Shown: piece after piece, positions 34,201 to 52,657 of the stretch
Position numbering within the stretch: the first letter of the stretch is position 1
How the letters are laid out: every line of letters begins with the position of its first letter
Assembly (NCBI GenBank): GCA_963773945.1
Contig: CAVZDD010000005.1
Location: forward strand, 377,077 to 441,076
From: an uncultured Thermoplasmata archaeon
GTDB lineage: Archaea; Thermoplasmatota; Thermoplasmata; Lutacidiplasmatales; UBA184
Length of the DNA stretch: 64,000 nt
Reading direction: 5' to 3'
Program-made: the position numbers and the translations under genes
The notes under the pieces: model-generated
The model's input: only the letters and a program-made list of their open reading frames with translations
Databases searched by the model: none
What the model was told of the DNA's origin: nothing

Positions 34201-36141
34201 GTGGCCCCGAACCGACGACTCGCCGCACTGATGTTCACCGACATCGTGGGTTACACGGCCCTGACGCAGGCCGATGAATCAACCGCACTGAAGCTCTTGG
34301 AGCGGCACAATGGGCTCCTCCGACCCTTCTTTCCACGGTTCCATGGCCGAGAGATCAAAACAGAGGGAGACAAATTTCTCGTCGAATTCGATAGTGCCCT
34401 CGACGCCACAACGTGCGCGGTCGAACTACAGCGGCTTCTGTACGAGCACAATCTCTCCGCGGGGGCCGATGCCAAGATCGTGATCCGCATCGGAATTCAT
34501 CTCGGCGACGTCGTGCACACCGGCGACGACATCCTGGGGGACTCCGTCAACATCGCCTCCCGCATCGAACCGCTGGCGACACCGGGAGGGATCTGCGTCA
34601 CGGAGCCGGTGTATAGCCAAGTTCGGAACAAGATTCCGAACCGTCTCGAGAAGCTAGCGCCCCAGACTTTGAAGAATGTTCGATTCCCCATCGACGTGTA
34701 TCAGGTGGTCCTCCCATGGTTGGCCGGCGGCGCGTCCCCGGTGGGAGGCGACCACCCTCGGCTTGCTGTCCTACCTTTCTCCAACATCAGTCCGGATCCC
34801 AAGGACGATTACATCTCGGACGGCCTTACGGAGGAGCTGATCACGGTCATTTCGCAATTGCCGGGGGTCCGGGTCATCGCACGAACCTCGGTCATGCAGT
34901 ACCGGGCGACCACCAAGGCGGTGGCCCAGATTGGCGCTGAGCTGGGCGCCTCCTCCATTCTGGAAGGCAGCGTACGAAAGGCCGGGAATCGGCTCCGTAT
35001 CACCGCCCAGCTGATCGACGCAAGTTCCCAAGAACACTTGTGGGCCAGCACCTACGAGCGTGAGCTCAACGATGTGTTCGCCGTCCAGGCCGAGATTGCC
35101 AAGCAGGTCGCGGAAGCGTTGCGAATTGAGCTGCGGCCGCAGGAAGAGGCACGATTGGATACTCGGCGGAGCGTACGGCCCGAGTCTTATCTCGCCTATC
35201 TGAAGGGCCGCGCACTACTGTACCCAGGGTCGCGCAACGGCCAGCTGGCCGCGAAAGAACAATTCGAACTCGCGATCTCGTTAGACCCCCAGAATGGGGC
35301 GGCCTATGCAGGGCTGGCCACCGTTGTTCGAAGGATAGGCTGGTTCTTCGACCCTCGTCCTCGCGAGGTATGGGACGCTGAGGGGCGCCACGCCGCTGCG
35401 AGAGCTCTCGAATTGGAGCCGAACCTTTCCGAGGCCCACACGGCTTTATCGCTGATCTACTGGGACGACTTCGACTACGGGGCGGCCGAACGGGAAGTGA
35501 AGAGGGCTCTAGCACTCAATCCCAGCAACGCCGAGGCACACTACGTCTATGCTATGGTTCTCGAGGACCTAGCTCGGGCGGAAGAGGCGATCGTAGAGCA
35601 CCAGCTCGCTGCGGCCGCAGACCCTCTCGGGGGGGAGACGCTCGACCATTACGCCACATTGCTGATATGGCTCGGTCGAACCGACGAGGCGCTCCCGGTG
35701 ATTGAAAGGCGTAACCGGCTGATTGCGGATCCGAGGCGCTCGCACGACCTCCTGTCGGATTACCACCTAGCCCGCGGGGACCACAAGCGGGCTCTCGAAG
35801 AAGTAGACCTGCAGCTCGCGGAGGGCACTGACCCGGACGACGTCAGTGGCGAGTGGCAAGAACTGACCATCGCCTGGCGTTGCTTCTTGATTGGGGACAA
35901 AACTGGGGCCCGGTCGGTTCTGGCCAAAGTCGAATCTTCCCCTGCGGGCCCACTCTCGCTCTATCTCTGCGGACTGTACTATGCGCAACTCGGGGACATC
36001 GACGGCTGTTTCCGCTGTTGGGAGCGAGCCGCGCGGAACCGAGGCCTTCCGGCCCAAGGTCTGAGACTCGATCCGACCTTGGAGCCGGTGAGAAAGGACC
36101 CTAGGTTTCCGCATCTGTTACACGAACTGGGCCTCGCGTAG
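34201..36141 (+). CDS. class III adenylate/guanylate cyclase fused to TolB-N-like domain and TPR/bTAD repeats (646 aa)
   Basis: Cyclase core (MFTDIVGYTAL...KTEGDKFLVEF...RIGIHLGDV...GDSVNIASR), then LAVLPFSNISPDPKDDYISDGLTEELI, then C-terminal TPR repeats. Confidence 0.85.
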   Translation: MAPNRRLAALMFTDIVGYTALTQADESTALKLLERHNGLLRPFFPRFHGREIKTEGDKFLVEFDSALDATTCAVELQRLLYEHNLSAGADAKIVIRIGIHLGDVVHTGDDILGDSVNIASRIEPLATPGGICVTEPVYSQVRNKIPNRLEKLAPQTLKNVRFPIDVYQVVLPWLAGGASPVGGDHPRLAVLPFSNISPDPKDDYISDGLTEELITVISQLPGVRVIARTSVMQYRATTKAVAQIGAELGASSILEGSVRKAGNRLRITAQLIDASSQEHLWASTYERELNDVFAVQAEIAKQVAEALRIELRPQEEARLDTRRSVRPESYLAYLKGRALLYPGSRNGQLAAKEQFELAISLDPQNGAAYAGLATVVRRIGWFFDPRPREVWDAEGRHAAARALELEPNLSEAHTALSLIYWDDFDYGAAEREVKRALALNPSNAEAHYVYAMVLEDLARAEEAIVEHQLAAAADPLGGETLDHYATLLIWLGRTDEALPVIERRNRLIADPRRSHDLLSDYHLARGDHKRALEEVDLQLAEGTDPDDVSGEWQELTIAWRCFLIGDKTGARSVLAKVESSPAGPLSLYLCGLYYAQLGDIDGCFRCWERAARNRGLPAQGLRLDPTLEPVRKDPRFPHLLHELGLA

Positions 36142-36213
36142 GTGTAACGGCCATTGCACACGCGCCCCTCGAACAGATGATATAGTTCTCATACATGTAA
36201 CAAATGTATATCC

Positions 36214-36459
36214 ATGGCCTCCAAGACGGTTGCCCTCGATGTGGAGGCCTACGAGCTGCTGAAGCGTCAGAAGAAGGCGGACGAGAGTTTTAGCGACGCT
36301 GTCAAGCGACTCGCTCGACCTCGTCGGCCGCTCTCCACCTTCGCGGGCATCTGGAGCGACATGTCCCCGAAAGAACGGGAGGTGGTGGACCGCGTCTACT
36401 CCGTCCAGCGTGAGGCGGACCGGCGCCGGGAGGAGAAAATCCGGAAGATGTGGAGTTAG
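36214..36459 (+). CDS. VapB-type antitoxin
   Basis: 81 aa, immediately upstream of and coupled to the PIN gene. Confidence 0.55.
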   Translation: MASKTVALDVEAYELLKRQKKADESFSDAVKRLARPRRPLSTFAGIWSDMSPKEREVVDRVYSVQREADRRREEKIRKMWS

Positions 36460-36462
36460 GAC

Positions 36463-36849
36463 GTGAAGTGTCTCGACTCTACGTTTTGCATTGACCTCGC
36501 CAACGGGTTGGAAGCCGCACGGGCGAAGGCGGACGAGCTTTCCCAGGCCGGGGAGCGTCTTTCGATCCCAGCACCCGCTCTCACAGAATTCCTCGTGGGG
36601 GCCTTCCACCAAGGCGGTACCCGACTCAAACAGGCCCTGGCGCTCGCTTCGGAGCTGGAGGTTCTTGACGTCACAGAGCCGATCTGCGTGGACGCCGCCC
36701 GCCTGGGGGCGGAGTGTGCGCGTCGTGGATCTCCAGTGGGCACCTTGGACCTCCTCATTGCCGCAACGGCGAAGCATCACCACGCGCCGCTACTTAGTCG
36801 GGACAAGGACTTCAGCCGGATTCCTAACCTGACCATCGAGACCTACTGA
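36463..36849 (+). CDS. vapC: PIN-domain toxin VapC
   Basis: PIN acidic residues (FCIDLAN...E...D...D) and a 128-aa length. Confidence 0.75.
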   Translation: MKCLDSTFCIDLANGLEAARAKADELSQAGERLSIPAPALTEFLVGAFHQGGTRLKQALALASELEVLDVTEPICVDAARLGAECARRGSPVGTLDLLIAATAKHHHAPLLSRDKDFSRIPNLTIETY

Positions 36850-36909
36850 CCCCACCCCGGATGGGGTAGCTGGCACGACCCACGGGGCCCCCCGGGGAAA
36901 AAGGTCGGC

Positions 36910-37299
36910 CTAATCGGTCCGGTTCGATATCACGAATTCATTTCCGTCGGGGTCGGCGACCACCGCCAAAACGAACTTTACCCCGGGGAATTCGATCACC
37001 CGGGGTTCAGTGGTTACCGCGCCGCCGCGTCGCTTGATCTCCGCGCAGGAGGCCGCAGGGTCGGGGTGTCGGAGGATTAAGCCGGTTACCGTACCGGGTT
37101 CTCGCCCGCCTTCATCCCCTCCCTGGATGTGCATCGTCAGGAGTGTCGTCGTGCCCGGTAGGGCGAAGACGGCCCGGTTTCGACTCTCGTTGAAACTCAG
37201 CTCATGGAGACCGAGTACTTCCCGGTAGAACTTCCGCGCCTTCTGGATATCCGAAATGTGGATTGTCACTGCGTGCAGACCCGTGATCACGTCGTCCAT
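36910..37299 (-). CDS. VOC-family (glyoxalase/bleomycin-resistance fold) protein
   Basis: Tandem beta-alpha-beta-beta-beta modules and ADPDGNEF. Confidence 0.75.
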   Translation of the reverse strand: MDDVITGLHAVTIHISDIQKARKFYREVLGLHELSFNESRNRAVFALPGTTTLLTMHIQGGDEGGREPGTVTGLILRHPDPAASCAEIKRRGGAVTTEPRVIEFPGVKFVLAVVADPDGNEFVISNRTD

Positions 37300-37412
37300 G
37301 ATTCTGGATTTTCCGGGCCTTGTTAAGTTCTCCTGGGCCGGACCAGCACCGGGCTCACGGAGCCGTGTTCTAAGGGACTCCGTTCGAGTCGAGCCGGATA
37401 GACGTAGGGAAT

Positions 37413-37709
37413 ATGCCCCCCCCAGCCCACTCGGGGCCGGTGACCAACATGGCGGACGCCATTACAAGTCAGTCGACGATTTCTTCCCACGCGCGAGAGA
37501 ACGATTTGCCCCTCCGAGCCCGCATCGTGGCCTCGATCATCGGGCCGGTGGCCTGGCTTTCTTTCACGCTACTGTACGTGGGATTCTGGGCGAAGGGATT
37601 CACCCTCTTCCAGAGCCTAATCGTGATTCTGGTCTCGATCGTCATCTTGGCGGGCCTGATGGGGGCCCTGTGGGCTTCCTTGGGGTTCCGGTACCGCAAC
37701 TGGACGTAG
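37413..37709 (+). CDS. small 2-TM membrane protein
   Basis: Two hydrophobic helices; the start is uncertain (MADAITS at 37449 is possible). Confidence 0.35.
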   Translation: MPPPAHSGPVTNMADAITSQSTISSHARENDLPLRARIVASIIGPVAWLSFTLLYVGFWAKGFTLFQSLIVILVSIVILAGLMGALWASLGFRYRNWT

Positions 37710-37736
37710 GACCACTAAATCGCGCCGAGGGGGTGC

Positions 37737-38699
37737 CTACAGGGCGCCCCCCACCCCGTCGAGGAAAGTGGCCGAGGGCACGAAGAACAGGTTCCCAGTC
37801 ACGGCCCGACTGAAATCCAGGAGCCGGTCGTAGTTTCCGGGGGGATTGCCCACGAACATATTCTGGAGCATCTGCTCGGTAGTCCGTGGCGAGCGGCTGT
37901 ACCCGATGAAGTAGGTTCCAAACTCTCCCTGGGCCGGGTGGCCGAACGGCATGTTGTCCCGTAGGATCTTGACCTCCTTCCCATGCTCGACAATGGTGGT
38001 CAGCGAGTTGTGGGCGTTGGTGGGTTTGACCGAGTCGTCCAACTCGATGTCGTCTAGCTTCGTGCGACCGACGATGCGCTCCTGTTCCTCTGTCGGGAGC
38101 TTGTTCCACGCCGCGAGGTCGTGGAGATATTTTTGAACGATCACGTAACTCCCAGAGGCGAACGTCGGGTCTTCCGTACCGATGAGCACGGTGTCGATGG
38201 CAGCTTGTCCCTTCGGATTCTCCGTGCCATCGACGAAGCCGATCAGGTCGCGGCTGTCGAAGTATCGGAACCCTTGCACCTCGTCAACCGGCGAGACGGC
38301 AGGCCCAAGGCGAGTCAAGATCTTGGTCTCTAACTCGAAGCAGAGGTCCGCACGGTCCGCCCGGATATGAAACAGGATATCGCCCGGGGTCGAAACGGCG
38401 ACCCGACCCCCAGCTCGGATCTCGCGAAACTCGTGCAATTCGGTCGGCCGCGGCGCTCCGAACAGGTCGTCCCAAGCCCGCGATCCAAATCCCACGACAC
38501 AGGAGAGGCTCTCATGCAATTCCCGGAAGCCTACCGAGCGGACAAGCGAGGCCATGTCGGCACAAACGGTTTGGATAGTGGTGAGGTTCTCGGGACTCCG
38601 GTTGATCGTGACCACCAGGAAGACGGCGGCTCGCGTCAGTGGGCCAGCAACGTCCTGGGGGTCGGCACTGGCGTTCTCGGTTGCCCTAGGGTTCGACAT
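37737..38699 (-). CDS. Dyp-type peroxidase
   Basis: An internal ATG at 38699 was verified (MSNPRATEN...). The C-terminal block GEFGTYFIGY...FF matches the Dyp family. Confidence 0.8.
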   Translation of the reverse strand: MSNPRATENASADPQDVAGPLTRAAVFLVVTINRSPENLTTIQTVCADMASLVRSVGFRELHESLSCVVGFGSRAWDDLFGAPRPTELHEFREIRAGGRVAVSTPGDILFHIRADRADLCFELETKILTRLGPAVSPVDEVQGFRYFDSRDLIGFVDGTENPKGQAAIDTVLIGTEDPTFASGSYVIVQKYLHDLAAWNKLPTEEQERIVGRTKLDDIELDDSVKPTNAHNSLTTIVEHGKEVKILRDNMPFGHPAQGEFGTYFIGYSRSPRTTEQMLQNMFVGNPPGNYDRLLDFSRAVTGNLFFVPSATFLDGVGGAL

Positions 38700-38799
38700 T
38701 TGCGAGGAGAGGTCCAGTGCGCCGCGGGTTGTTAGAGTTTGGAGGGAGGCGGGCGCAACGCGCATTGCAACCGAAGCGGATGACGGCTCGGGGTTTGAG

Positions 38800-39486
38800 C
38801 TAGGTAGGCGCGGGGTCAAGGTGCCCCGGTGGAGGTTTCGTCCCGTGAGCCCGGAGCCGAAGGTACGCATCGGTGTAGGCCCCCGCGAACAGGAAGTAGG
38901 CGACGAACAGAGGGGCTATCACGAAGGCCAGTGGCGCGAATGAGACGATCAGCCCCAATGGATTGGTGAAGAACTGGTGCAGCAGTTTTTGAAACTCACT
39001 CCCAACCATATAGCCGGCCAAAACCGCGACCCCGAGGGACCATGCGAAGGCGAGCCAGGAAATCACTCGTCCCACCGGGCCGACGAGGCGTTCGACCAGA
39101 ACGACCAGGCCGAGGAAGAAATTGCCGAACGCGAGCGCGACCAGACCCCCGACGATCCACGCGAGCACGGCCGGTGGACCCCCATGGCCCGGCCCCCCCT
39201 CCAACGAACCGAGGACCGCGATGATCGCTGCTGCCCCGATGAAAATCCCGAGCGCTGCCCACAGCAACCGGTGGCCCCGGCGGATGCTGTGTCGATGGGA
39301 CTCGGTCCATTCGTGGCGGCCTCGGTACATCAGGTAGAAGCCGACCCCCGTGGTGATGAGACCGAAATAGTAGAGTCCAATCCACACCTGGTGACCGCCA
39401 CTCAGGAATTGGTACACCTCCGTGCCGCCCTCTACGACAAAACCAAACACGAAAGTCTCCAACGCGATCCGGATGGCCCGGGTCAT
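38800..39486 (-). CDS. hypothetical 6-TM membrane protein
   Basis: Hydropathy profile. Confidence 0.55.
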   Translation of the reverse strand: MTRAIRIALETFVFGFVVEGGTEVYQFLSGGHQVWIGLYYFGLITTGVGFYLMYRGRHEWTESHRHSIRRGHRLLWAALGIFIGAAAIIAVLGSLEGGPGHGGPPAVLAWIVGGLVALAFGNFFLGLVVLVERLVGPVGRVISWLAFAWSLGVAVLAGYMVGSEFQKLLHQFFTNPLGLIVSFAPLAFVIAPLFVAYFLFAGAYTDAYLRLRAHGTKPPPGHLDPAPT

Positions 39487-39640
39487 CGGAGGGTCCCCCG
39501 CACGAGCGAGCAGTGGAGTCTCCGCGAAAGAGCGCGGGGGTCCCGATCGTTCAAACCGGCCGCCCTACGAACCTATATCGGGGTCGTCGTGATGGGGCCA
39601 TTGCCGAAAGGCGAGGTCGTCGAAAATGAGCTGCGGAGCC

Positions 39641-39784
39641 ATGAAAGTCGCCTGCGAGGACGGATTCGAGATCGTGACGAAGGACCAGAAAGAACTGGTT
39701 GCCATGACCCAGTGGCACGTCGAGCACTCGCACAACAAGAAGGTTAGCGAGTCCGAAGTCATGGCCATGTCCAAGCACCCCTGA
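39641..39784 (+). CDS. DUF1059-family small metal-binding protein (47 aa) missed by ORF track
   Basis: Manual translation gives MKVACEDGFEIVTKDQKELVAMTQWHVEHSHNKKVSESEVMAMSKHP* with TGA at 39782-39784. The minus-strand ORFs listed here are antisense artefacts. Confidence 0.6.
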   Translation: MKVACEDGFEIVTKDQKELVAMTQWHVEHSHNKKVSESEVMAMSKHP

Positions 39785-39865
39785 GTCCGACTCCCCCTCC
39801 CGTGGCCGGCCCGGTACGGGGCCGGCTGCCCGGGTGCGACGACTCTTGCAACAGTTTCAACTCCT

Positions 39866-41037
39866 AGTGCCGCTTCTAGCCAGGTAGTTCGACCTTCCGA
39901 CCGAAAAAGCTAGTGCCGGGGAGCGCATGCTCCCCGAGCATGGTCCGCCGGGTTCGAACGATCTCCAACGAGGAAGGTCAGAAGCTCGCCCGATTGTGCC
40001 GTCATCCGAGCGATGCCATCGAGCTCCATCGTGCGATGGTGATCCTCTCGAGCGCCCAAGGGTTCACGCCGCCCTACATCGCTCGATTGGTGGGCTACTC
40101 GCCCGACTGGGTTCGGACCCTCATTCGCGAGTTCAACCTCCACGGCTTCAAGATGCTCAAGCCGAACTGGAAGGCCGGAGGGAACTGGAAGTTCACCCAA
40201 GAACAGAAGGACCAACTGGTGGCGCTCGCCACCCGTCGACCAAGGGACCTCGGCCTCCCGTTCTCCCAGTGGTCCCTCGCCCGACTGCGGGACGAGGCGA
40301 GGAACCAGCGGATCGTCGACTCGATCTCGTTGGAGTGGCTGCGCATCGTACTGGACGAGGCGGACATGAGCCATCAGTCGATCAAGACCTGGAAGGCGTC
40401 AAAGGACCCGAAATTCGAGGAGAAACGACGGCGGATCGACCGGTTGACCCACCAGAAGCACAACCCGCCGATCGTGCTCAGCATGGACGAGATCGGCCCG
40501 ATCTCGCTCCAGCCCCATGGAGGGAAAGGATGGTTCCGCTCGGGGCACCCCGAGCGGATCCCCTCGACCTACAAGCGGCTCAAGGGCACTCGGTACCTCT
40601 ACCTCACACTGAACGTCTACCATCAGCGGCTCAGCGGTCGACTCTATCGGCACAAGGGCGGGGAACCCTGGCTCGATTACGTGCAGCGCGAGGTCGAGAA
40701 GTACCCCAAGGACCAACGGGTCTACTTGATCCAAGACAACCTGAGCGCCCACTGGACCCCCGACGTGCGGGGGTGGGCGAAGGACAATCGGGTGACGTTG
40801 GTGGCCTCGGCGACCCAAGCGAGTTGGATGAACCCCGTCGAGAGCCACGCGGGAGATCTGCAGAAGCTGGTGCTGGCGGGGTCGAACTTCGGGTCGTGGA
40901 CCGAAGTGCGGAGAGAGGTGGCGCGAGCGATCGCCTTTCGGAATCGGGAACGAGGACTACGCAAGAAGAGGTTCCGGGACACCCAGATGCGAAAGTGGAA
41001 AGTTCACCGACGACCTATCTGGAAGCGGCACTAGTTC
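39866..41037 (+). mobile_element. IS630-family insertion sequence with ~13-bp terminal inverted repeats
   Basis: Left end CTAGTGCCGCTTC (39867-39879) is the reverse complement of the right end GAAGCGGCACTAG (41025-41037). It encloses the transposase gene. Confidence 0.75.
39913..41034 (+). CDS. IS630-family DDE transposase
   Basis: N-terminal HTH (LIREFNLHGFKMLKP) and DDE_3 core (LSMDEIGP...LIQDNLSAH...NPVE). Confidence 0.85.
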   Translation: MPGSACSPSMVRRVRTISNEEGQKLARLCRHPSDAIELHRAMVILSSAQGFTPPYIARLVGYSPDWVRTLIREFNLHGFKMLKPNWKAGGNWKFTQEQKDQLVALATRRPRDLGLPFSQWSLARLRDEARNQRIVDSISLEWLRIVLDEADMSHQSIKTWKASKDPKFEEKRRRIDRLTHQKHNPPIVLSMDEIGPISLQPHGGKGWFRSGHPERIPSTYKRLKGTRYLYLTLNVYHQRLSGRLYRHKGGEPWLDYVQREVEKYPKDQRVYLIQDNLSAHWTPDVRGWAKDNRVTLVASATQASWMNPVESHAGDLQKLVLAGSNFGSWTEVRREVARAIAFRNRERGLRKKRFRDTQMRKWKVHRRPIWKRH

Positions 41038-41265
41038 CATGACACCAAGCTCTGGATGGTGCCCCGAGAAGATTCGGGACCAAGAACGTTTGCGGGTCGA
41101 GCACGGACTCGAAAGTGTCCGAAGAGTGGTATCGCGGGGCCGTCCGAGGACGCTAGATTATTCAACTTGCGCCGGGTTCCCGCGGCTGTGCCGGCCGACC
41201 CTTCTGCTATCCCCTCCGATGTACGCGGAGCCCTGGAAAGTAACGCGATCGCCTTTTTCTCACGT

Positions 41266-42027
41266 ATGGCAGGCGCCCCGAAAGGAAATCTGGAGGAAAG
41301 CGCCCAAGGAATCCGAATCTGTTCCGGTGTCCCATTCCCCATCTTCAACTGGGTTCTTCGGAACCGCTTTTCCGAATCGGAGGCGGACGAGCAGATCAGC
41401 GCCACGATTCACCACTTCCGCGCACGCGGGCTACCATTCTACTGGGGGATTTTCCCGGATGATCGACCTCGAAACCTAAGAGAGAGGTTGCTGGCCGCGG
41501 GGTTCGAGGCGGAAGAGGCGCCGGCCATGGCGATAGAGCTCGACCGCCCTCCGACCCCTCCGCCGCGGAAGGGTCTCTCGATTGAACCCGTGCGGACCAT
41601 GGAACAAGTTCGGGTGTTCGCCGAGACGCTCAACGCCGGCGACTTCCAAGCGGCCCCCGAAGTCGCCGAGACCATACCCGATGTCTTGCGGCCGTCTCTC
41701 TCCTCGGGGAGTGCCGAACCGCACCTGCGTTGCTTCGTGGGTTACCATGATGGCAAGCCCGTCGCGACTTCCGCCCGGTTCCTCAGCGGCGGGGTGGTCG
41801 GGATCTACGGGATCGCCACCGTTCCGGCCGCCCGCCGTCGAGGTTTCGGAATGTCGATGACCCTGGCCGCGCTCGAGGACGGGCGAACTCTGGGGTACCG
41901 ATCCGGTGTTCTCACAGCCACGACGATGGGAGAGCCCCTGTACCGTCATCTCGGCTTCCGCGAATTGTATCGTCTGACCCAGATCGTCGTGCCGGCCACA
42001 AACGAACCGCCCCAAGCACACGCCTAA
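41266..42027 (+). CDS. GNAT-family acetyltransferase
   Basis: Acetyl-CoA motif RRRGFGMSMT. The ORF opens at 41056, only 19 nt after the IS end, so the native N-terminus or promoter may have been displaced by the insertion. Confidence 0.65.
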   Translation: MAGAPKGNLEESAQGIRICSGVPFPIFNWVLRNRFSESEADEQISATIHHFRARGLPFYWGIFPDDRPRNLRERLLAAGFEAEEAPAMAIELDRPPTPPPRKGLSIEPVRTMEQVRVFAETLNAGDFQAAPEVAETIPDVLRPSLSSGSAEPHLRCFVGYHDGKPVATSARFLSGGVVGIYGIATVPAARRRGFGMSMTLAALEDGRTLGYRSGVLTATTMGEPLYRHLGFRELYRLTQIVVPATNEPPQAHA

Positions 42028-42051
42028 GCAGGCCTCGGACGGGGGAGATCA

Positions 42052-42720
42052 ATGCCCGAGATGAATCGCGTCGCGCGCTTCTTCGTGAACAACTTCACGG
42101 GGCGCATCAACCTGCGTCGATATCGATGGCTGACTGCGAACCTTCGCCTGCCCTCGCACGCGAGCTGTTTGGAGATCGGGTGCGGAAACGGGGACTTGGC
42201 GGCCCGGATTATCGATGGCCTCTCTCCGGCGCGCTATGTGGCAACCGACCTCGACCCTCAACAGATCCAAGCCGCGCGTCGACACCTCGCCCGTCGCTAC
42301 GCCAACGGGCTCCCACCCACCCTCGAGCTCCGGACGGCCAACATGCTCGAGCTCCCGTTCCCGCCGGCTTCGTTTGACGCTGTGTTGGCGTTTGTGGTGA
42401 TCCACCATGCGAGTTCGGAGCATCGGGACTTTACGAACGTCCCCCGGGCATTGTCCGAGGTCAGCCGCGTGCTTCGGCCCGGCGGAAGCCTCGTCTACGA
42501 GGAGTTTCTCCACAAGGATCGGATACGCACGTGGCTCACCGAGCGCGGCTACGTTCTGGCGGCGGTGGAACACCACCGGGCTCGAGAAACGGTGGTGGCA
42601 ATCAAACCGGCCGCGAATTCTGGATCCGTTAGCGGGAACCCATCAGCCGGCGCTTGGCGATCCTCGCGGGGAAAATTGTCGATACCCGACGGGGGTAGAC
42701 ATCCCGGGGCTTCCGAAGCA
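42052..42720 (+). CDS. class I SAM-dependent methyltransferase (3' end uncertain)
   Basis: LEIGCGNGDLA motif I, DAVLAFVVIHH and VLRPGGSLVY. The ORF reads on without a stop to 43155 across the convergent HxlR gene, so the true 3' end is probably near 42.7 kb or there is a frameshift. Confidence 0.5.
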
Positions 42721-43960: not shown

Positions 43961-43987
43961 GGTCGTCGAGCCGAGCCGACGCTCGAA

Positions 43988-45109: not shown

Positions 45110-45195
45110 GGAGAAGTCCGTGCCCCGGTGAGGTTCTACGCCGCCTTCCGATGGGGGCCAGCGGGGCTTAATCTAACGGGAGGGATTCGCGGACC

Positions 45196-47150
45196 GTGGC
45201 TTCGAACCGTCGCCTCGCCGCGGTCATGTTCCTGGATATGGTGGGGTACACCGCGGCGACTCAGGCCGATGAGGCCCGGACCCTGGTCCTCTTGGAGGAA
45301 CAAGAGGAGCTTCTTCGTCCGGCGTTGTTGTTGTACAAGGTCGAGAAGTCAAGTCGACCGGCGATGGATTTCTCGTGGAGTTCGACAGCGCACTCAAGGC
45401 GACCCAGTGCGCCGTTGAGATCCAGCGCCGAATCCACGAACGCAACGCAAAGAAGGACGCCTCCCCCCTCCGTTTGCGCATCGGAATCCATCTGGGCGAC
45501 GTGGAGCAACGGGGCAGCGATATTTTCGGAGACGCCGTAAATATTGCGTCCCGGATTCAACCCGTGGCCGAGCCCGGTGGAATCTGCATTTCCAACGCAG
45601 TGCAGGAACAGGTTCGGAACAAGATTTCCGACCGACTGGAAAGGCTGCCGCCTGCGAAGCTCAAGGGTCTCGAGGGACCGGTGGAACTCTACCGGGTCGT
45701 ACTGCCCTGGGAGGTCTCGGTCTCCCCGGCGCCGGGTTCGCAACGGGCCCGGCTCGCGGTCCTCCCGTTGGCCAACATCAGCCCCGACCCCAAGGACGAG
45801 TACTTCGCGGATGGTCTCACGGAGGAGCTGATCACGGTGCTCTCCAAGATTCGGGAGCTCCGGGTCATCGCCCGAACCTCGGTGAGCCAGTACAAGGGCA
45901 GTTCAAAGTCCGTCTCCCAGATCGGGGCCGAACTCGGGGTCGCCTCCGTCCTGGAGGGCAGTGTGCGCAAGGCCGGCAATCAGTTACGCATTACGCTGCA
46001 ACTCATTGACGTGGCCACCGAGGAGCACACGTGGGCCGAGAGCTACGACCGGGAGCTCGCCAATGTATTCGCCATCCAGGGGGAGATTGCCGAGAAGACC
46101 GCCGGGGCTCTTCGGGTGGAGCTGCTGGGCCCCGACCGGGAATCCATCCGCAAGCGGCCCACCTCCAACCTCACTGCGTACAATCTCTACCTGAAGGGGC
46201 TGCACGCCGGGCATGGGGCGTCCTACGAATTCTATGCCGAGGCCATCAAGTTCTTCGAGGAGGCGATACAAAAGGATCCGAGTTTCGGGGTGGTCCACGC
46301 CGTTCTCGCGAACGAGTACATCAGTCTGGCCGGGGAAACGGTCGCCCCGAACGAGGCTTTTCCCCGCGCCCGGGAGCTTATCGCGAAGGCGCTCGAGCTG
46401 GACCCGAACTCCTCGGAAGCTCACTTGGCGCGGGCCAACCTCGCCATGCAAGACGACTTCAACTGGGCCGTCGCCGAGATGGAGTTCGAGCGCGCCATCG
46501 CGCTGAACCCGAGCAGCGCGCAGGCCCATTTCTGGTACGCGATGCTCCTCCGGATCCTCCAGAGATATGACGAGGCGATCGACGAGCTCCGAACCGCGTC
46601 CGAGCTGGACCCCTTGTGGAAACTTCTGGAGTCGTCGCTGGGAGAAACGTACGTCCGATCGGGAGATTTCGCGACGGCGTTGAGCCTGGCCGAAGAACAA
46701 CGGGACCGAGATCCCGGTGACGCCGACCCGCATTTGCTCCTGGGCTTCATCTACTTGCGCGCGGGTCGGCGACCCGAGGCCCAGCGGGAGGCGGAACTCG
46801 CGGTCGGGCCCCTCGACCTCGGGGACCGGAGACGCCGCGCCGCCCTCTGGGCCCTGCTGGGGAAGCCCGACGAAGCGCGGAAAATCGTTGCGGAGATGCA
46901 GGACCCCGCGCGAGGGCAATATGCCAGTCCTTGGCAGCTCGCCGCCCTCCTCTCGAGCATGGGGGAGAAGGAGGCCGCGCTCGCGGTGCTGGAACGCGAC
47001 GAGCGGGAGGGTGGCAAGGGGGGCCTCTGGTTCCACTCCGGGGAGGTCGCGTTCGACCCGATTCGACGGGATCCTCGCTTTCAGTCGTTGCTGAGGAATC
47101 TCAACCTTCCCGGGGACGAGAAAGGCTCCGCCTCCGCGGGCGCCAAGTGA
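45196..47150 (+). pseudogene. second adenylate/guanylate cyclase-TolB-N-TPR gene, frameshifted in a GTT repeat
   Basis: ORF 45196..45540 encodes the cyclase N-terminus (MASNRRLAAVMFLDMVGYTAAT...). The paralogous sequence then continues in the +1 frame (GREVKSTGDGFLVEFDSALKATQCAVEIQRR...). The switch falls in gcgttgttgttgtac, around 45318-45336. Confidence 0.7.
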
Positions 47151-47263
47151 GCGACGGCAGGGTGCAACGACGAATGCACCTTTGGCTTTCCCGCGTCGTG
47201 GGTGCCGGCCGTTGCTCCCGCGGAAGGTAGATAGTCAGGATGGTGTAACACGCGGGGTTCCGC

Positions 47264-47617
47264 TTGCAGCTCCAAGCCGGCGAGATCATCCTCGCGCAAC
47301 AGCCGACAGCGTTGTACTCTCAATTTGGACGGCCCTCCGGTCTCCTGGTCTTGACCAACGTTCGGCTCACGTTCGAGGTGTATTCGGCCGGGTACCTCCT
47401 TCCCTCTGTAGACCTGGGGCTGGACAAGCTCCTCAACGCCTACCCGATGCCCACCCAGGGGGACCTGATCATCGATTCTAAGACTCTGCTCACGGTGGAC
47501 ACGACCCAGGGCCGGTTACAGTTCGATCTTATGAACGCCCCCCAGTGGGCCCAATTGATCCTTCAGGCTCGTGCGAGCGTCCCTCCGCCACCCCCGCCCC
47601 CGCCGCCTCCGGTCTAA
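47264..47617 (+). CDS. hypothetical bacterial-PH-like domain protein with C-terminal poly-Pro tail
   Basis: 117 aa ending in PPPPPPPPPPPV. Confidence 0.45.
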   Translation: MQLQAGEIILAQQPTALYSQFGRPSGLLVLTNVRLTFEVYSAGYLLPSVDLGLDKLLNAYPMPTQGDLIIDSKTLLTVDTTQGRLQFDLMNAPQWAQLILQARASVPPPPPPPPPPV

Positions 47618-47681
47618 CGCCCGGAGGGGCACAATCTCTACCCTTAATCTAAAGGAACGGGTACCGTCTTTGGGTGCGATC

Positions 47682-48740
47682 ATGGCAGTTGATCCGGAGA
47701 AGTTGAATGCGTTCATGGGGAAGTTCGTCCAGGATCTTGGAGCGAATTTTCACGGGCCTTCTGTATTGATCGGGGAGCAGCTCGGGCTCTACAAAGCCCT
47801 CGCGGCCGCGGGACCCTCCACCTCGGCCCAGCTCGCGGAGCGCACGGGGGTGGGGGAGCGGTACCTTCGGGAGTGGCTGGCCGCCCAGGCCGCTTCGGGC
47901 TATGTGGAGTACGACCCGACCACCCACCAATTCTCGATGACGCCCGAGCAGAAGTTCGCGTTGACCGATGAGGAGAGTCCGGCCTACATTCCTGGGGCGT
48001 TCTACAGCGCCGCCTCCCTCTACAAAGACCAGCGGAAGATTGCGGACGCGGTTCGGGCCGGCAATGGCCTCGGATGGCACGAGCACCACAACGACCTGTT
48101 CGTCGGGACCCGAAAATTCTTCCGGCCCGGTTACCTGGCGAACCTCGTCAGTGCCTGGCTACCCGCTCTAGAAGACGTCGTGCCGAAGCTGAAGGCGGGC
48201 GCGCAAGTGGCCGACGTGGGATGCGGCCTCGGAGCCTCCACGATCATCATGGCCAAGGCCTTCCCCAAATCGAAGTTCCTGGGGTTCGACTACCATCTCG
48301 AGTCGATCGAATGGGCCCGGAACGACGCCGTGTCCCAAGGGGTGACTCAAAACGCCGATTTCGAATTCGCGACCGCGAAGAGTTTCCGGGGCCAGGACTA
48401 CGATCTCGTGACGTTCTTCGATTGCCTGCACGACATGGGGGACCCGGTAGGGGCGGTGGAGCATGTGCGGAAGTCCCTCAAACCCGATGGCACGCTGATG
48501 GCGGTCGAGCCATTCGCCCACGAGCACCTGGAAGAGAATCTCAACCCCGTGGGCCGCGTCTTCTACAGCGCATCGATGCTGATCTGCGTTCCGTGTTCCC
48601 TCTCGCAAGAGGTGGGGAAGGGCCTGGGAGCCCAGGCCAGCGACTCGAGTCTTTTCGAGGTGTTCCGGGCCGGAGGGTTCACCCGGGTGCGCAAGCCGGT
48701 CGAAACGCCGTTCAACCGGGTCTTCGAGGCGCGACCGTAG
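47682..48740 (+). CDS. SAM-dependent O-methyltransferase-like protein with N-terminal winged-helix/dimerisation domain
   Basis: ATG at 47682 verified in frame. VADVGCGLGASTI motif I, DLVTFFDCLHDM and LKPDGTLM. Confidence 0.75.
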   Translation: MAVDPEKLNAFMGKFVQDLGANFHGPSVLIGEQLGLYKALAAAGPSTSAQLAERTGVGERYLREWLAAQAASGYVEYDPTTHQFSMTPEQKFALTDEESPAYIPGAFYSAASLYKDQRKIADAVRAGNGLGWHEHHNDLFVGTRKFFRPGYLANLVSAWLPALEDVVPKLKAGAQVADVGCGLGASTIIMAKAFPKSKFLGFDYHLESIEWARNDAVSQGVTQNADFEFATAKSFRGQDYDLVTFFDCLHDMGDPVGAVEHVRKSLKPDGTLMAVEPFAHEHLEENLNPVGRVFYSASMLICVPCSLSQEVGKGLGAQASDSSLFEVFRAGGFTRVRKPVETPFNRVFEARP

Positions 48741-48848
48741 GGCCCCAATCGGTCGTTGAGCCGTGGAACGCCCCCGGAAAGGAATCCGTCAACGGCAGCT
48801 AGCAAAGGACCGTGCCGGCGGTGCCGGATCGGGGGGGGTCGACCGATA

Positions 48849-49259
48849 TCACTCGATCTCCGAGCGAAGCAGGACTGCACGATATCCGATGGGCACGTCC
48901 GCCAGCATCACCGGCCAGGAACCGCCGAACCGCGCGGGATCTGTCGTGAATTCTAGGTGGAGATTGGCCGCCAGCTTCTCGAAGCCCTGCTGGAGTTGCC
49001 CCGCGAACCGGTTCAAGTCGCTCGATCGGCTATCGACTGGAACGAGCCGAAGCTGAGCCTCGTTCAGCGAGGCATTCACGTCGAGGTAGCCGGCATAGGC
49101 ACTGACAGAGATTTCGGGTTCGTGGAGCTGGAAATTCGATCGGAATAGATCCGCTCCCAACATGACGTCCCGGACGGCGGTGAAGACACGAAATTTCAGC
49201 CGTTCTCGGACCTTCATGGCCCGTTCCTGTTCTCGCCGAGAAAGCTGCGCCGGATCCAT
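48849..49259 (-). CDS. hypothetical protein
   Basis: An internal ATG at 49259 (MDPAQLSRREQ...). The upstream part of the ORF is Arg/Pro-rich noise. Confidence 0.35.
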   Translation of the reverse strand: MDPAQLSRREQERAMKVRERLKFRVFTAVRDVMLGADLFRSNFQLHEPEISVSAYAGYLDVNASLNEAQLRLVPVDSRSSDLNRFAGQLQQGFEKLAANLHLEFTTDPARFGGSWPVMLADVPIGYRAVLLRSEIE

Positions 49260-49474
49260 GGGCGTTCCTGTCCGGCGGGAATTCGTGCGTACTAAAGACG
49301 CTCGCGTCGGCGAGCCGATCCTCACATCAGCCTCCAGCCTGAGTCCGAAGTCGGGCCCCGGAGGAGAAGAACGCGGCGCCGTCCCACGGCCATCTCCAGG
49401 TCCCCTGGAATGGGGGTGCAACCCCCATAGTACCCTTCAGCCACTTCCGATGACGCGATGGAACCCGGGGTTTG

Positions 49475-50167
49475 TCAGACCGTGCGTCGCTCGGTCAGGA
49501 TTAACTGCCGATCGATACCTCGGGAACGGACGTCCATGGCTCGATCGAAATCAGCGCTCGAGAGTCGCTGGTCGGCTCCCAAGTCGGGGTCGTGGAACTG
49601 GACCCAGCCGCCCTCCAGACCGGTAACGACCACCCAGTGCAGAACCCCCTCCGGAAAGTTGGGGTCCGGGGCGTAGGATCCCTGATTCACCATCACGATC
49701 GCCGGGCGACCCAACGCGTCCGGCTGCCGGAGCCGGTCGACGGTGACCGTTTCAACCTGAAGGTGCACTCCGGCTCGGCGAGCTTGCCACTCCTGGAATC
49801 GGGCCCCCGGGGTGGCCAGGTACCCGAAGACTTTGCCAATCTTGTCGAAATTCGACCCGGATTCCGGGCGGAACTGGAATCGGGGCCGTTCCTTCACCAC
49901 GGTCACTCGCGCGCCGGAGCTGAGGAGAAGGGTGGCGAGACCGAAGGATTCCGTCATGCTGAATGGAGCGATCCAGCTGCGTACCCACGGCACCATGTCC
50001 GATCCTTTCGGAACCACGGGGGATCCGTCGAGCCATCCACGGACCATTTGGACGCACGCGGGTCCGCAGCTCCCGAGCATGGTCTGCTTGAAGTACGGGA
50101 CGGGAAGGGCCACAGGCGGCGAGAGCGGTCGTGCCCTTAACGGGTACGGGGTCGCGGCGAAGTCCAC
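49475..50167 (-). CDS. peptidase C39-like (papain-fold, BtrH-N-like) protein
   Basis: VPYFKQTMLGSCGPACVQMV with catalytic Cys context, and a downstream His region (HWVVVTG). Confidence 0.55.
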   Translation of the reverse strand: MDFAATPYPLRARPLSPPVALPVPYFKQTMLGSCGPACVQMVRGWLDGSPVVPKGSDMVPWVRSWIAPFSMTESFGLATLLLSSGARVTVVKERPRFQFRPESGSNFDKIGKVFGYLATPGARFQEWQARRAGVHLQVETVTVDRLRQPDALGRPAIVMVNQGSYAPDPNFPEGVLHWVVVTGLEGGWVQFHDPDLGADQRLSSADFDRAMDVRSRGIDRQLILTERRTV

Positions 50168-50307
50168 TGGCTACCAACCGGGTAGGGGTGCCACAATCGA
50201 GGGGGGCAGGGACGAAGTCCTCAACACGCGCAGCGATGTGAATCTCCCTCGAATCGTTGAGCTCGCCGAAACGATACTGATTCGTAGGGAGGCGTTGGTC
50301 CCGCCGC

Positions 50308-50823
50308 ATGAGTCTCGCAGAGGTGCAGACGTGGGTGAGCATCGCGGCGTCGTTGGCGCTCGTGGCATCGGTGATGATTTTAGCATACAACGTGCGGGCA
50401 AGCCGGATCGACGCGCGACGAAACCTAGCTTTCTCGATGATGGAACGACTTACCTCAGCGGACTTTGCGGAGCGCCGATGGAAAATGCACCAATCGGTCG
50501 AGGCCGCCGCTGCCGCCGGTTGGCGGGAGTTCGGCAATAGTCTGGAGGATTTTGAAAGCCGGTCCTTCGCCTATCAGTATGAACTCATCGGCCAGATGGT
50601 GAAGTCGGGAACGCTGGACTACTTGCTAGTCCGGGATTTCATGCGGTACACTGTAGTGACGGACTGGAACGCATTCGAGCCGTTGGATACGCATCTCAAG
50701 GAACGGTATCCGGGACGCCCGAGCCCCTGGACTCGGTTCCGGCAATTGGCCAAGCGGATCACCACAGAACTAGAAGGTCCACAGCTGAGGGGAGAGGAAC
50801 CTCCCGCCCCCAGCGTATATTGA
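50308..50823 (+). CDS. DUF4760-like protein, N-terminal TM anchor (paralog of 20404..20943)
   Basis: TM WVSIAASLALVASVMILAYN, then the shared core with the first copy. Confidence 0.5.
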   Translation: MSLAEVQTWVSIAASLALVASVMILAYNVRASRIDARRNLAFSMMERLTSADFAERRWKMHQSVEAAAAAGWREFGNSLEDFESRSFAYQYELIGQMVKSGTLDYLLVRDFMRYTVVTDWNAFEPLDTHLKERYPGRPSPWTRFRQLAKRITTELEGPQLRGEEPPAPSVY

Positions 50824-50983
50824 ACGCGCTTCCTGGAAGACCGGTTAAGTTCCTATCTCCGCGCCGCTCGGGGAGAAATCGGTCATTCCGGCGACATCCA
50901 AACCGGTTCTCGCCCAACTGCTTGCGGCAGATGTAACTAGTGACGACGGCTTCCCCTTCGGTGAGTGTCGGGGGGGACCGAGA

Positions 50984-52120
50984 TTGCTAGTAGGCGCAGC
51001 GGAAGTGGAGTTCGCCGGAAGGATGGCCATGATGGCAGCAGCACAGGGAGCCGCTTCGATCCAAGCAGCTGCCGCGGCAGCGATGCATGGAACCGAGGCT
51101 ATCCGAGGGACGTTAGCGCTCCGTGGATCGGAAATGATCCGGGGGACGAGCCTGGTTGCCGGTCGAATGGCTCGCGGAACGGAAGCGTTGAGGGGCGCGC
51201 TCGCCCTACATGGGTCGGAAGCGATCCGGGGGGCAAGGATGGTTCCCGGTCGGATGGCTCGCGGAACGGAAGCGTTGAGGGGCGCGCTCGCCTTACATGG
51301 GTCGGAAGCGATCCGGGGGGCAAGGATGGTTCCCGGTCGGATGGCTCGGGGAACGGAGGCTTTGACCGGCGCGCTCGCCCTACATGGGTCGGAAGCGATT
51401 CGGGGGACGAGCCTGGTTGCCGGTCGGATGGCTCGGGGAACGGAAGCCTTGAGGGGCGCGCTCGCCTTACATGGGTCGGAGGCGATCCCGGGGGCACGCA
51501 TTGTTCCCGGTCGGATCGCTCGCGGCGCAGACGAATTGAGTGGAGCGCTCGCGCTTCGTGCATCGGAAGCGATTCGGGGGGCAAGCATTGTTCCTGGCCG
51601 GGTCGCGCGCGGAACTGATGAATTGAGGGGCGCGCTCGCCCTACATGGGTCGGAAGCGATCCGGGGGGCAAGCCTGGTTGCCGGTCGGATGGCTCGGGGA
51701 ACGGAAGCTTTGACTGGCGCGCTCGCCTTACATGGGTCGGAAGCGATTCGGGGGGCGAGCACCGTTCCCGGTCGGATGGCTCGCGGAACGGAAGCTTTGA
51801 CCGGCGCGCTCGCCTTACATGGATCGGAAGCGATTCGGGGGGCGAGCACCGTTCCCGGTCGGTTGGCTCGCGGCACCGAGGCCCTGAGAGGTACGATGGC
51901 ACTCGGGGCGGCGGACCTGATGCGAGGAGCGAACGCGGCTCACGATCGGATTGCGGCCCAAGGCGCGGCGGCGACCCGTTTCTGGGCAGGGGTAGCGGCT
52001 CGGGGCGCGGCAGCGATTCACGCCATGGCCGCTCTCCAAGGACTTGTGGCCAAGGGGATCGGTACGAAGGCACTGGGCCTCAAAGCGTTGGCAAACCGAG
52101 GGGCGATTATCGCTCGGTGA
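50984..52120 (+). CDS. repeat protein with ~9.5 tandem 29-aa Ala/Gly/Arg-rich repeats (strand assignment tentative)
   Basis: GRMARGTEALRGALALHGSEAIRGARMVP reiterated. It has unique N- and C-terminal tails and is preceded by a 160-nt intergenic region. The minus strand also carries long ORFs (50845..51876) over the same repeats. Confidence 0.4.
   Translation: MLVGAAEVEFAGRMAMMAAAQGAASIQAAAAAAMHGTEAIRGTLALRGSEMIRGTSLVAGRMARGTEALRGALALHGSEAIRGARMVPGRMARGTEALRGALALHGSEAIRGARMVPGRMARGTEALTGALALHGSEAIRGTSLVAGRMARGTEALRGALALHGSEAIPGARIVPGRIARGADELSGALALRASEAIRGASIVPGRVARGTDELRGALALHGSEAIRGASLVAGRMARGTEALTGALALHGSEAIRGASTVPGRMARGTEALTGALALHGSEAIRGASTVPGRLARGTEALRGTMALGAADLMRGANAAHDRIAAQGAAATRFWAGVAARGAAAIHAMAALQGLVAKGIGTKALGLKALANRGAIIAR
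51075..51900. repeat. 87-bp near-identical tandem repeat array (~9.5 copies)
   Basis: Units such as ATGGCTCGCGGAACGGAAGCGTTGAGGGGCGCGCTCGCCCTACATGGGTCGGAAGCGATCCGGGGGGCAAGGATGGTTCCCGGTCGG recur head-to-tail with a few substitutions. Confidence 0.85.
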
Positions 52121-52216
52121 AACTCCAGCACGCCGGCAGCTGGAAGCTGCGGGGCCACTCTTGGGTCCCGATCGTTGACATCGATGACTAACGCGTCGCC
52201 GGTCGGGGAGGAACTC

Positions 52217-52657
52217 CTACTCAGCTAGCGCGTTGTTGGCCGCGCGGAGCCGACGGCTCATCTCCGCGAGAACACTGAGCACCACCACTGGTTCGCTCGC
52301 GGCGTACGCCCAAAACTCCCACTTCGACAGGGTGGCGAGCCTCGACGGACGGAGCGTCACCACATCGGCGGACCGGGGTTGATCGTCGAACAGCGACATT
52401 TCGCCGAAGAATTGCCCAGTGCCCAATCGCGCGAGGCGACGACTCCCGATCCGGACCTCCGTCGATCCTTCGAGGATCAGAAAGAGCCCATTCCCGGACT
52501 CCCCGCGTTTGACAACGGTCTCGCCCGCTGCAAAGTCGACCACCTTCGCATATTTCGCGAGGGTCGATAATTGACGTGGGGAAAGCACTCCGAGGATTGT
52601 GACCTTCTTGAGCCGTTTCACCAACTGGCTCGCCGAATACGTCGACGACTTCGACAT
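52217..52657 (-). CDS. standalone cyclic-nucleotide-binding (CAP-effector-type) domain protein, no DNA-binding domain
   Basis: GQFFGEMSLF and RSADVVT phosphate-binding cassette. The protein ends right after the C-helix (146 aa). Confidence 0.8.
   Translation of the reverse strand: MSKSSTYSASQLVKRLKKVTILGVLSPRQLSTLAKYAKVVDFAAGETVVKRGESGNGLFLILEGSTEVRIGSRRLARLGTGQFFGEMSLFDDQPRSADVVTLRPSRLATLSKWEFWAYAASEPVVVLSVLAEMSRRLRAANNALAE

Follow-up and report, generated by a model that had tools for sequence, protein, structure and literature searches.

Class III adenylate cyclases and a single-domain cyclic nucleotide-binding protein in an uncultured Thermoplasmata archaeon as putative parts of a lineage-wide cAMP signalling system

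The making and reading of cyclic AMP (cAMP) by archaea are poorly understood. The nucleotide has been reported from only a few archaeal species, and among archaeal genes annotated as class IV cyclases those of Sulfolobus have been shown to encode triphosphatases (PMC8233210). Class III cyclases receive a passing mention for soil Nitrososphaeraceae (PMC13577086), and the description of Lutacidiplasmatales, an order of soil and peat archaea with high G+C content and a size of ~2.1 Mb, in which UBA184 was placed as one of two previously public genomes, contains the words 'cyclase' and 'cAMP' zero times (PMC9287336). Our survey of the literature on archaeal class III cyclases, on stand-alone cyclic nucleotide-binding proteins and on their pairing with Lrp genes found no account of such a system, and nothing on Thermoplasmata. 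Here we analyze a stretch of 64,000 nucleotides (the window) from the assembly of an uncultured Thermoplasmata archaeon of the UBA184 lineage (GCA_963773945.1, contig CAVZDD010000005.1, positions 377,077 to 441,076), which contains two paralogous cyclase genes, cyc1 and cyc2, and a gene for a cyclic nucleotide-binding (CNB) protein. A reading of the letters alone (the original prediction) had taken these genes for cyclic-nucleotide signalling parts in an archaeon, comprising two cyclase-TolB_N-TPR sensors and a CAP-like receptor devoid of the helix-turn-helix (HTH) domain, and our analysis bears out this core interpretation. We propose, with a probability of roughly 0.6, that the three genes belong to a cAMP signalling system shared across the lineage, with a receptor module that has been locally eroded. 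The features that carry the argument are the following.

34201..36141, plus strand: cyc1, intact gene for a predicted class III adenylate cyclase (open reading frame of 646 aa with a Pfam match), laid out as cyclase (aa 4-170), TolB_N-like domain (~186-305) and TPR plus variable C-terminal region (~330-646)
34166..34183, plus strand: promoter-like element GCGGGGCTTAATCTAACG of cyc1, 18 nt, located 17 nt before the GTG
45196..47150, plus strand: cyc2, paralogous cyclase-TolB_N-TPR gene, its reading frame broken by loss of 1 nt at ~45336-45340, where frame 1 passes into frame 3
45161..45178, plus strand: promoter-like element GCGGGGCTTAATCTAACG of cyc2, the identical 18-mer, 17 nt before the GTG
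52217..52657, minus strand: CNB gene, predicted stand-alone cyclic nucleotide monophosphate-binding protein of 146 aa with beta-barrel and C-helix and without HTH
52678..52692, minus strand: conserved CNB promoter element GATACGTTTTAATTC, 21 nt before the CNB ATG

A six-frame scan of the 64 kb with hidden Markov models (HMMs) built from these families returns exactly two cyclase genes and one CNB gene and nothing else of either kind, so that the three genes had been located and described correctly. The archaeal assignment also holds, since NCBI names the identical CNB protein, and those close cyclase and CNB homologues that carry names, Thermoplasmata archaeon. Assemblies in NCBI, ENA and Logan contain the exact CNB and cyc1 proteins, and the generic labels of these families are already correct in public annotation. 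The components are ordinary members of known families, abundant and typical in this lineage. The G+C content of the window ranges from 59 to 71%, and tRNA and Rfam scans of it gave no matches.

Residues 9-142 of cyc1 match PF00211 at 3.4e-17 (63.1 bits, cut-off 21.9), and the long open reading frame (ORF) of cyc2 reaches 37.6 bits against the same cut-off. In cyc1 the catalytic hexad consists of D14 and D57, which bind the metals, K53 and D110, which specify adenine, and the transition-state residues N117 and R121, set at canonical spacing (K+4=D, D+7=N, N+4=R); all six are present in cyc2. Conservation of the hexad extends to 117-120 of the 122 family members, with the Lys of the specificity pair kept in 117, its Asp in 119 and the metal and transition-state residues in 119-120. 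The specificity residues, on which the assignment had been said to depend, are thus canonical for adenylate cyclase in both copies, in that the Lys/Asp pair stands within a complete hexad, and as read from their sequences both genes carry the signature of an active adenylate cyclase. The closest solved structures to the cyclase domain, 3mr7 (3e-28), Ma1120 and Rv1900c, are all bacterial adenylate cyclases, and by the class III mechanism a catalytic domain of the cyc1 type would produce cAMP from ATP as a head-to-tail homodimer. Maximum hydropathy in cyc1 is 1.17 and there are no transmembrane or hydrophobic segments; the whole protein is therefore cytosolic.

The label TolB-N, previously attached to the middle domain, holds at the level of the fold. 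The sequence match to Pfam TolB_N (PF04052; E 0.047, 14.2 bits) stays below the cut-off of 22.4, as does the match to FlgO (15.3 bits, cut-off 22.6), whereas an AlphaFold model of cyc1 residues 172-335 (predicted local distance difference test, pLDDT, of 85) superposes on TolB N-terminal domains with template modelling (TM) scores of 0.58-0.62, root-mean-square deviations of 3.1-3.5 Å and E ~1e-6. The model also matches GNA1162, PelC, LpoB and the periplasmic domain of CadC. Towards the C-terminus, several TPR families (TPR_17, TPR_2, TPR_14, TPR_19 and others) score above cut-off in both cyc1 and cyc2. Across 31 family members mean identity falls from 76% in the TolB_N-like domain to 65% in the cyclase, 53% in the TPR region and 44% at the C-terminus, and between cyc1 and repaired cyc2 (~650 aa, 46% identical overall) the corresponding values are 67, 60, 39 and 29%. 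This gradient fits paralogues whose catalytic and transducing core is common to all and whose TPR ends recognize different things. The conserved TolB_N-like domain and the fast-diverging TPR/C-terminal region would then constitute the regulatory part of the cyclases, and the paralogues would couple different inputs into a single messenger.

The search for cyc1 homologues was saturated, yielding at least 7,952 at E<=1e-10 among 8,000 scored candidates. The best 120 have a median length of 640 aa and are 40-100% identical to cyc1 (mostly 52-60%, three at 40-50%), and those of them that are named come from Thermoplasmata; related copies are found in Nitrososphaerales loci from metagenome-assembled genomes (MAGs). 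The statement that cyclases of this type are uncommon in archaea hence fails for this lineage, of which the cyclase-TolB_N-TPR architecture is a hallmark; to our knowledge, it is possibly uncommon in archaea at large. Families of several class III cyclase paralogues within one genome are also a feature of mycobacteria and rhizobia.

The 18-mer GCGGGGCTTAATCTAACG is matched twice in the window, where 0.19 matches are expected, and related elements, GCTTAATC(TAAC/GCTA), stand upstream of cyclase paralogues in four other loci (L003, L005, L010 and L013). It looks like an archaeal promoter composed of a B recognition element (BRE) and a TATA box, which would imply an mRNA with a short leader or none. 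In one public gene call (P0001) the start of cyc1 is placed at an ATG 30 nt downstream of the GTG. Because the N-terminus VAxNRRLAA is common to cyc1, cyc2 and their homologues, and because GCGGGGCTTAATCTAACG lies 17 nt upstream of both GTGs, the sequence supports the GTG at 34201 over this ATG.

The frameshift previously reported in the second cyclase is real in the sequence. Frame 1 of cyc2, read from 45196, ends in LLRPALLLY, and homology resumes in frame 3 as GREVKSTGDGFLVEFD and continues to 47150, from which it follows that one base is missing within TACAAGGTC (~45336-45340). The deletion falls within a run of two bases (AA or GG), G+C content at third codon positions (GC3) is 0.81 in the frame beyond it, the catalytic residues are kept and the promoter is intact; these points suggest that the lesion is very recent or not real, and cyc2 is either a very recent pseudogene or a gene with an indel from assembly. 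An exact look-up of the cyc2 ORF products in other assemblies returned no record. A 2,006,912-bp ENA contig (P0007) contains a copy of cyc1 with 99% identity that agrees with it up to residue 452 and is then out of frame. The lesions in this copy and in cyc2 together indicate that indels are common in this cyclase family, be it in the population or in (long-read) assemblies.

The CNB protein consists of a single PF00027 domain (1e-18, 67.5 bits, cut-off 27.5). The family search gave 528 hits, and the best 120 cluster representatives are nearly all exactly 146 aa long and 62-76% identical. Orthologues at 63-73% identity are present in 12 Thermoplasmata species-representative MAGs, including UBA184; homologues at 40-43% occur in Nitrososphaerota (Gagatemarchaeum and relatives) and, beyond these, mainly in cyanobacteria (33-42%). 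The possibility that the gene is a truncated fragment or an assembly artefact, raised by the original prediction, is excluded by the identical protein in other assemblies and by the conserved length of 146 aa. Among 31 aligned orthologues 36 columns are invariant, including FGEM.LFD..PRSADV, and in the phosphate-binding cassette FGEMSLFDDQPRSADVV this leaves F84, G85, E86, M87, L89, F90, D91, P94, R95, S96, A97, D98 and V99 unchanged. Because the cassette Glu (E86) and Arg (R95) are invariant, as is the adjoining S96, the protein is predicted to bind a 3',5'-cyclic nucleotide, most likely cAMP. The family profile aligns with the CRP-family proteins M. tuberculosis Crp and CAP over positions 16-146, running through the C-helix to the last residue, and with PKA/PKG domains over the barrel only. 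The description of a CAP-type protein without an HTH is accurate, given that the alignment to CRP passes through the C-helix and the protein ends at residue 146; it does not qualify as a CRP/FNR transcription factor, having no C-terminal HTH and scoring 49 bits on the NCBIfam CRP model, whose cut-off is 266. With no output domain of its own, it would act through protein-protein contacts. A second CNB-domain gene, 35% identical, lies ~6.4 kb upstream of the orthologue in one relative (L017:1208-1597), and the receptor is accordingly not strictly single-copy everywhere.

The 15-nt element GATACGTWTTAATYC, 21 nt 5' of the CNB start, is recognizable at that position in 15 of 15 aligned upstream regions, and the window and each of 10 fetched loci contain a single exact copy of the pattern, invariably 5' of CNB. 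From this conservation we infer that the CNB gene is served by a conserved promoter of its own, in the window as elsewhere. The element overlaps a TTAATC core that is present in the cyclase promoters too, and it may simply represent BRE/TATA; we do not claim it as a specific operator. The ~600 bp 5' of the gene (52658-53259) hold no convincing coding frame, an unusually long gap for a compact genome, and a minus-strand ORF at 52664-53152, considered as a CNB partner, is probably non-coding: its GC1-3 values are flat, it matches no family and the other assembly has no gene called there.

The gene order around CNB is recurrent in related genomes. A gene for a 319-aa Lrp-like protein stands after CNB on the same strand in 15 of 17 distinct arrangements (L003, L005, L007, L009, L010, L011, L013, L014, L015-L020 and L093; L006 duplicates L005), separated from it by 50-210 bp, or more where a gene has been inserted (a 130-aa ORF in L003 and a metallo-beta-lactamase-fold (MBL) gene in L005 and L010). 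The outer flanking genes vary among these 15 loci, and in L014 the Lrp-like gene is interrupted. Often a convergent gene for a low-complexity repeat protein, its N-terminus conserved, faces the CNB unit. Of the 13 distinct Thermoplasmata loci that were scanned, 7 also contain, as fetched, a cyclase-TPR gene at up to ~6 kb from CNB. The association of CNB with a partner that carries an HTH, which the original prediction had considered, thus has a candidate in the Lrp-like gene behind CNB in relatives, but that gene is missing at this position in the window. In four Nitrososphaerota loci (L021, L024, L025 and L027) the CNB homologue is not followed by an Lrp-like gene; there, a convergent conserved gene of 276-277 aa (with variants of KIGSA.PRLLER.YPTV.P.Y) lies ~0.1-1.5 kb downstream of it.

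The 319-aa protein has two HTH_24/AsnC-type winged helices above cut-off and is annotated as Lrp/AsnC family; against NCBIfam it gave no match. Its structural model (pLDDT 92) displays the Lrp/AsnC-like fold, with two units each made of a winged HTH (wHTH) and a RAM domain, and each half matches archaeal and bacterial Lrp/AsnC regulators. The top Foldseek match of the full model is the siroheme decarboxylase NirDL (E 2e-10, TM 0.50, 10% identity). An invariant motif, CWWTHGP.SEEFPLA, distinguishes the family.

Three further features of the window bear on the composition of this module.

21263..22057, plus strand: RNase-Z-like metallo-beta-lactamase-fold hydrolase; the likely true start, ATG at 21317, gives 246 aa
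50984..52120, plus strand: repeat-protein ORF of 378 aa, convergent on CNB, coding status uncertain
15972..16889, plus strand: distant Lrp-like paralogue of 305 aa, with an AsnC-type/HTH_24 winged helix and weak Crp-type HTH matches

The MBL gene of the window is an orthologue, at 73-76% identity, of the MBL gene found beside CNB in many relatives. In relatives the gene directly adjoins CNB in eight arrangements, lying between CNB and the Lrp-like gene (L005, L010), upstream of CNB (L009, L016, L017, L093) or downstream of it (L091, L092), and is within 2-8 kb of CNB in L015 and L018. The protein belongs to the MBL superfamily, scoring 73 bits on Lactamase_B_2 (cut-off 27) and presenting the HxHxDH motif as SHLHSDH. 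It remains below the cut-offs of the more specific models: 132.5 bits on RNase Z (TIGR02651, cut-off 293), in two stretches with a gap at residues 164-186 of a protein of 246-264 aa, and, for phosphodiesterases of the Apyc1/YhfI type, 21 on PF23023 (cut-off 50) and 58 on NF041851 (cut-off 400, full-length alignment). It also matches YhfI-like and Apyc1 structures (Apyc1 7u2r, E 1.7e-8). Judging from its neighbours, a cAMP phosphodiesterase is a reasonable guess for this candidate.

Neither the window nor a contig of the same species (L001) has an Lrp-like gene at the usual place beside CNB, and a tblastn search of the window with the 319-aa protein recovers only the 23-25% identical paralogue at 15972-16889. 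Within the first half of the window, G+C content is lowest where this paralogue lies (59% at 16-18 kb). The ORF at 50984-52120, which ends 96 bp from the CNB stop codon, stands where, in relatives, the Lrp-like gene and, after it, a shorter repeat protein are encoded. It encloses an 87-bp tandem repeat (51124-51873; 8.6 copies, 85% matches) and shows no GC3 or codon-position signal and no Pfam or NCBIfam match; its N-terminus resembles the penta-/heptapeptide-repeat proteins (AVSKL, IVAKG, ALAKA) that converge on the CNB unit in L005, L007 and L091. A hidden HTH gene 3' of CNB can be dismissed, since the minus-strand ORFs of 324 and 343 aa at 50845-52073 are no more than antisense readings of the 87-bp repeat; all three overlapping long ORFs at 51124-51873 read one and the same repeat. 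The nearest relative (L091/L092), whose CNB is 75% identical, is intermediate, with CNB, MBL and repeat protein and no Lrp-like gene. The best reading of these arrangements is that the receptor module is locally eroded in the window, with the Lrp-like gene gone from its usual place, the MBL gene 30 kb away and the CNB promoter kept.

The genes had also been placed in a region populated by CRP/FNR-like dyads, a claim that consensus scans of the window do not support. TGTGA-N6-TCACA with up to two mismatches occurs at 5 sites where 12.4 are expected, and TTGAT-N4-ATCAA at 13 sites where 8.1 are expected, a number reached by 7 of 100 shuffles; neither is enriched. A receptor without an HTH would in any case not bind such dyads.

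Several other genes accompany the cyclases. A VapB antitoxin and VapC PIN toxin pair lies directly 3' of cyc1 (36214-36459 and 36463-36849, both plus strand), and the minus-strand ORF at 36118-36783 is a spurious antisense reading of this region, the real genes being vapB and vapC on the plus strand. In the relative L003 a paralogous cyclase is followed by a ribbon-helix-helix (RHH) antitoxin, a PIN toxin and an IS630-like transposase. An IS630-like transposase gene (HTH_29/HTH_32 and DDE_3) is found between cyc1 and cyc2 at 39913-41034 on the plus strand, and a similar element comes after the cyclase in L003/L004; the copy in the window may be relevant to the rearranged receptor locus. A gene for a GYD-domain protein (33675-34004, minus strand) diverges from cyc1, an arrangement repeated in an independent contig (L089).

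Taken together, these observations are consistent with a simple scheme. Dimeric cyclases under the control of their TolB_N-like and TPR regions would make cAMP, which would be bound by the CNB protein, itself probably a dimer held by the C-helix; the liganded protein would act on a partner that in most relatives would be the tandem Lrp-like protein, creating a CRP-like switch split over two polypeptides, and the MBL enzyme would remove the signal. In the species of the window the target of the CNB protein might be a different one or a partner encoded elsewhere, or the protein might serve as a buffer. In relatives, recurrent gene linkage suggests that CNB, Lrp-like and MBL proteins form a module of receptor, transcription factor and phosphodiesterase. 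Two extensions of this scheme are advanced more tentatively. That the split receptor and regulator represent a real new variant of cAMP-dependent transcription control is possible, but we hold it doubtful. Equally doubtful is a complete archaeal cAMP circuit in which many cyclase-TolB_N-TPR sensors feed one CNB protein serving as the detachable ligand-binding subunit of a tandem Lrp/AsnC regulator, with an RNase-Z-derived MBL as cAMP phosphodiesterase and the species of the window as a natural variant uncoupled from the regulator. A number of points weigh against a lineage-wide cAMP system. The functional link between cyclases, CNB, Lrp-like protein and MBL rests on gene neighbourhood only, and organisms of this lineage are uncultured. 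The nucleotide specificity of CNB is not certain from sequence. The top structural match of the 319-aa protein is an enzyme, NirDL, and not a regulator, though at 10% identity, and the MBL scores higher on the RNase Z model than on that for cyclic-nucleotide phosphodiesterases, below all cut-offs. Finally, the absence of the Lrp-like neighbour from the species of the window and from L091/L092 implies that CNB can persist without that adjacency.

This persistence of CNB in two species, and the fact that cyclase and CNB genes are not adjacent in the window, would also be expected if the parts were functionally unconnected, with cyclases that use other effectors or serve as scaffolds and a CNB protein that binds another ligand or buffers cAMP. 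Some CNB-fold domains of the CRP/FNR family do bind non-nucleotide ligands, but the cassette Glu and Arg-Ser, invariant in 31 orthologues, argue for a cyclic nucleotide, a cyclase occurs in the same fetched locus as CNB in the 7 of 13 related loci noted above, and the window encodes no second cyclic-nucleotide receptor domain; we consider such independence unlikely. The same local features could instead mark a system in decay in this genome, cyc2 being a pseudogene and CNB an orphan on its way out after the receptor module lost its transcription factor and phosphodiesterase neighbours. The frameshifts in cyc2 and in the 99% identical cyc1 copy after residue 452 on the 2.0-Mb contig, the IS630-like transposase at 39913-41034 and the graded layouts, from CNB-(MBL)-HTH-repeat through CNB-MBL-repeat (L091) to CNB-repeat in the window, are in line with decay. 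The receptor gene itself is nevertheless intact: its product is 75% identical to that of the nearest relative and lacks none of the invariant residues, and the conserved promoter is present in an exact copy. Moreover, cyc1 is undamaged, and cyc2 retains promoter, catalytic residues and a high GC3, so that its one-base gap, which falls in a short AA/GG run, may be an assembly error. The Lrp-like gene could sit elsewhere in the genome; the best 120 of its homologues do not speak against this, since the copy of L093, on a 75,915-bp contig, is not recognizable among them either. Decay of the whole system is, on balance, quite improbable.

A third explanation invokes antiviral defence, Pycsar-like or other: on sensing infection, the cyclases would produce a cyclic (pyrimidine) nucleotide, and abortive infection would be carried out by the CNB protein or by an effector under its control. 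CNB is hit by the PADLOC models of Pycsar effectors and of PycC (E 1e-10 to 2e-21), but these matches cover the generic CNB domain only (residues 31-144), with no TIR or transmembrane effector part. Weak PycC matches on the cyclases (17-25 bits) are offset by their Lys/Asp pair, which is of the purine (adenine) and not of the pyrimidine type, and the weak Apyc1 similarity of the MBL neighbour by its Apyc1 Pfam score of 21 against a cut-off of 50. The cyclase family resembles a defence gene in being multi-copy, with variable TPR ends and frameshifted copies near VapBC and IS630-like elements. Cyclase and CNB genes are however 5-18 kb apart in the window, and hence not in an operon, and across sampled Thermoplasmata both the 146-aa CNB orthologue and its promoter are conserved, unlike patchy defence islands. 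The original prediction had already graded a Pycsar reading as weak, rightly so in view of the purine-type pair, the lack of an effector domain and of an operon, and the genes do not belong to a Pycsar system by these features; we deem a defence role very remote.

The preferred reading thus remains that of signalling parts shared across the lineage, the content of the window being ordinary for that lineage and its value lying in the lineage-wide picture. The evidence suggests that an abundant lineage of soil archaea has both an extensive family of canonical class III adenylate cyclases and a conserved single-domain receptor, the latter in a recurrent Lrp-like/MBL neighbourhood. These proteins constitute concrete candidates for testing archaeal cAMP signalling by heterologous expression, and the possible split between cAMP receptor and transcription factor provides a testable lead.

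Compared with described systems, the genes combine familiar domains in distinctive ways. With Pycsar and Apyc1 they have in common a cyclase and a CNB protein and, nearby in relatives, an MBL hydrolase of ~250 aa with weak Apyc1 similarity; they differ in their purine-type residues, in a CNB without effector domain, in the absence of an operon and in family scores far below cut-off. The cyclases possess the soluble catalytic domain of ~170 aa and the D/D, K/D, N/R hexad of bacterial class III adenylate cyclases, including those with TPR (Ruegeria pomeroyi 3mr7, Mycobacterium avium Ma1120 and M. tuberculosis Rv1900c/LipJ), but are set apart by their archaeal host, by the fixed order cyclase-TolB_N-like-TPR and by the TolB_N-like part being the most conserved here. 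TolB_N-like domains are elsewhere mostly periplasmic (TolB, PelC, LpoB, CadC), whereas in these cyclases they are cytosolic. The 319-aa partner resembles Lrp/AsnC regulators and the tandem Lrp-like NirDL/AhbAB proteins in its two wHTH+RAM units, yet it is only 10-20% identical to them, has its own motif, and its gene is not in the window. Bacterial single-domain CNB proteins such as PDB 3gyd (Methylobacillus) and 2pqq (Streptomyces) are similar to CNB in size and domain content; we know of no partners or function for proteins of this type, whereas in the archaeal family both a partner gene and a promoter are conserved. The comparison with CRP/CAP is the most extensive: CNB has the same beta-barrel and long C-helix, corresponds end to end, in profile alignments, to the N-terminal domain plus C-helix of both M. 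tuberculosis Crp and E. coli CAP, carries the cassette Glu and Arg-Ser as in CAP and finds in CRP its best NCBIfam match, but it is without an HTH, and in relatives the DNA-binding domain, if any, would come from a separate gene of the Lrp/AsnC family.

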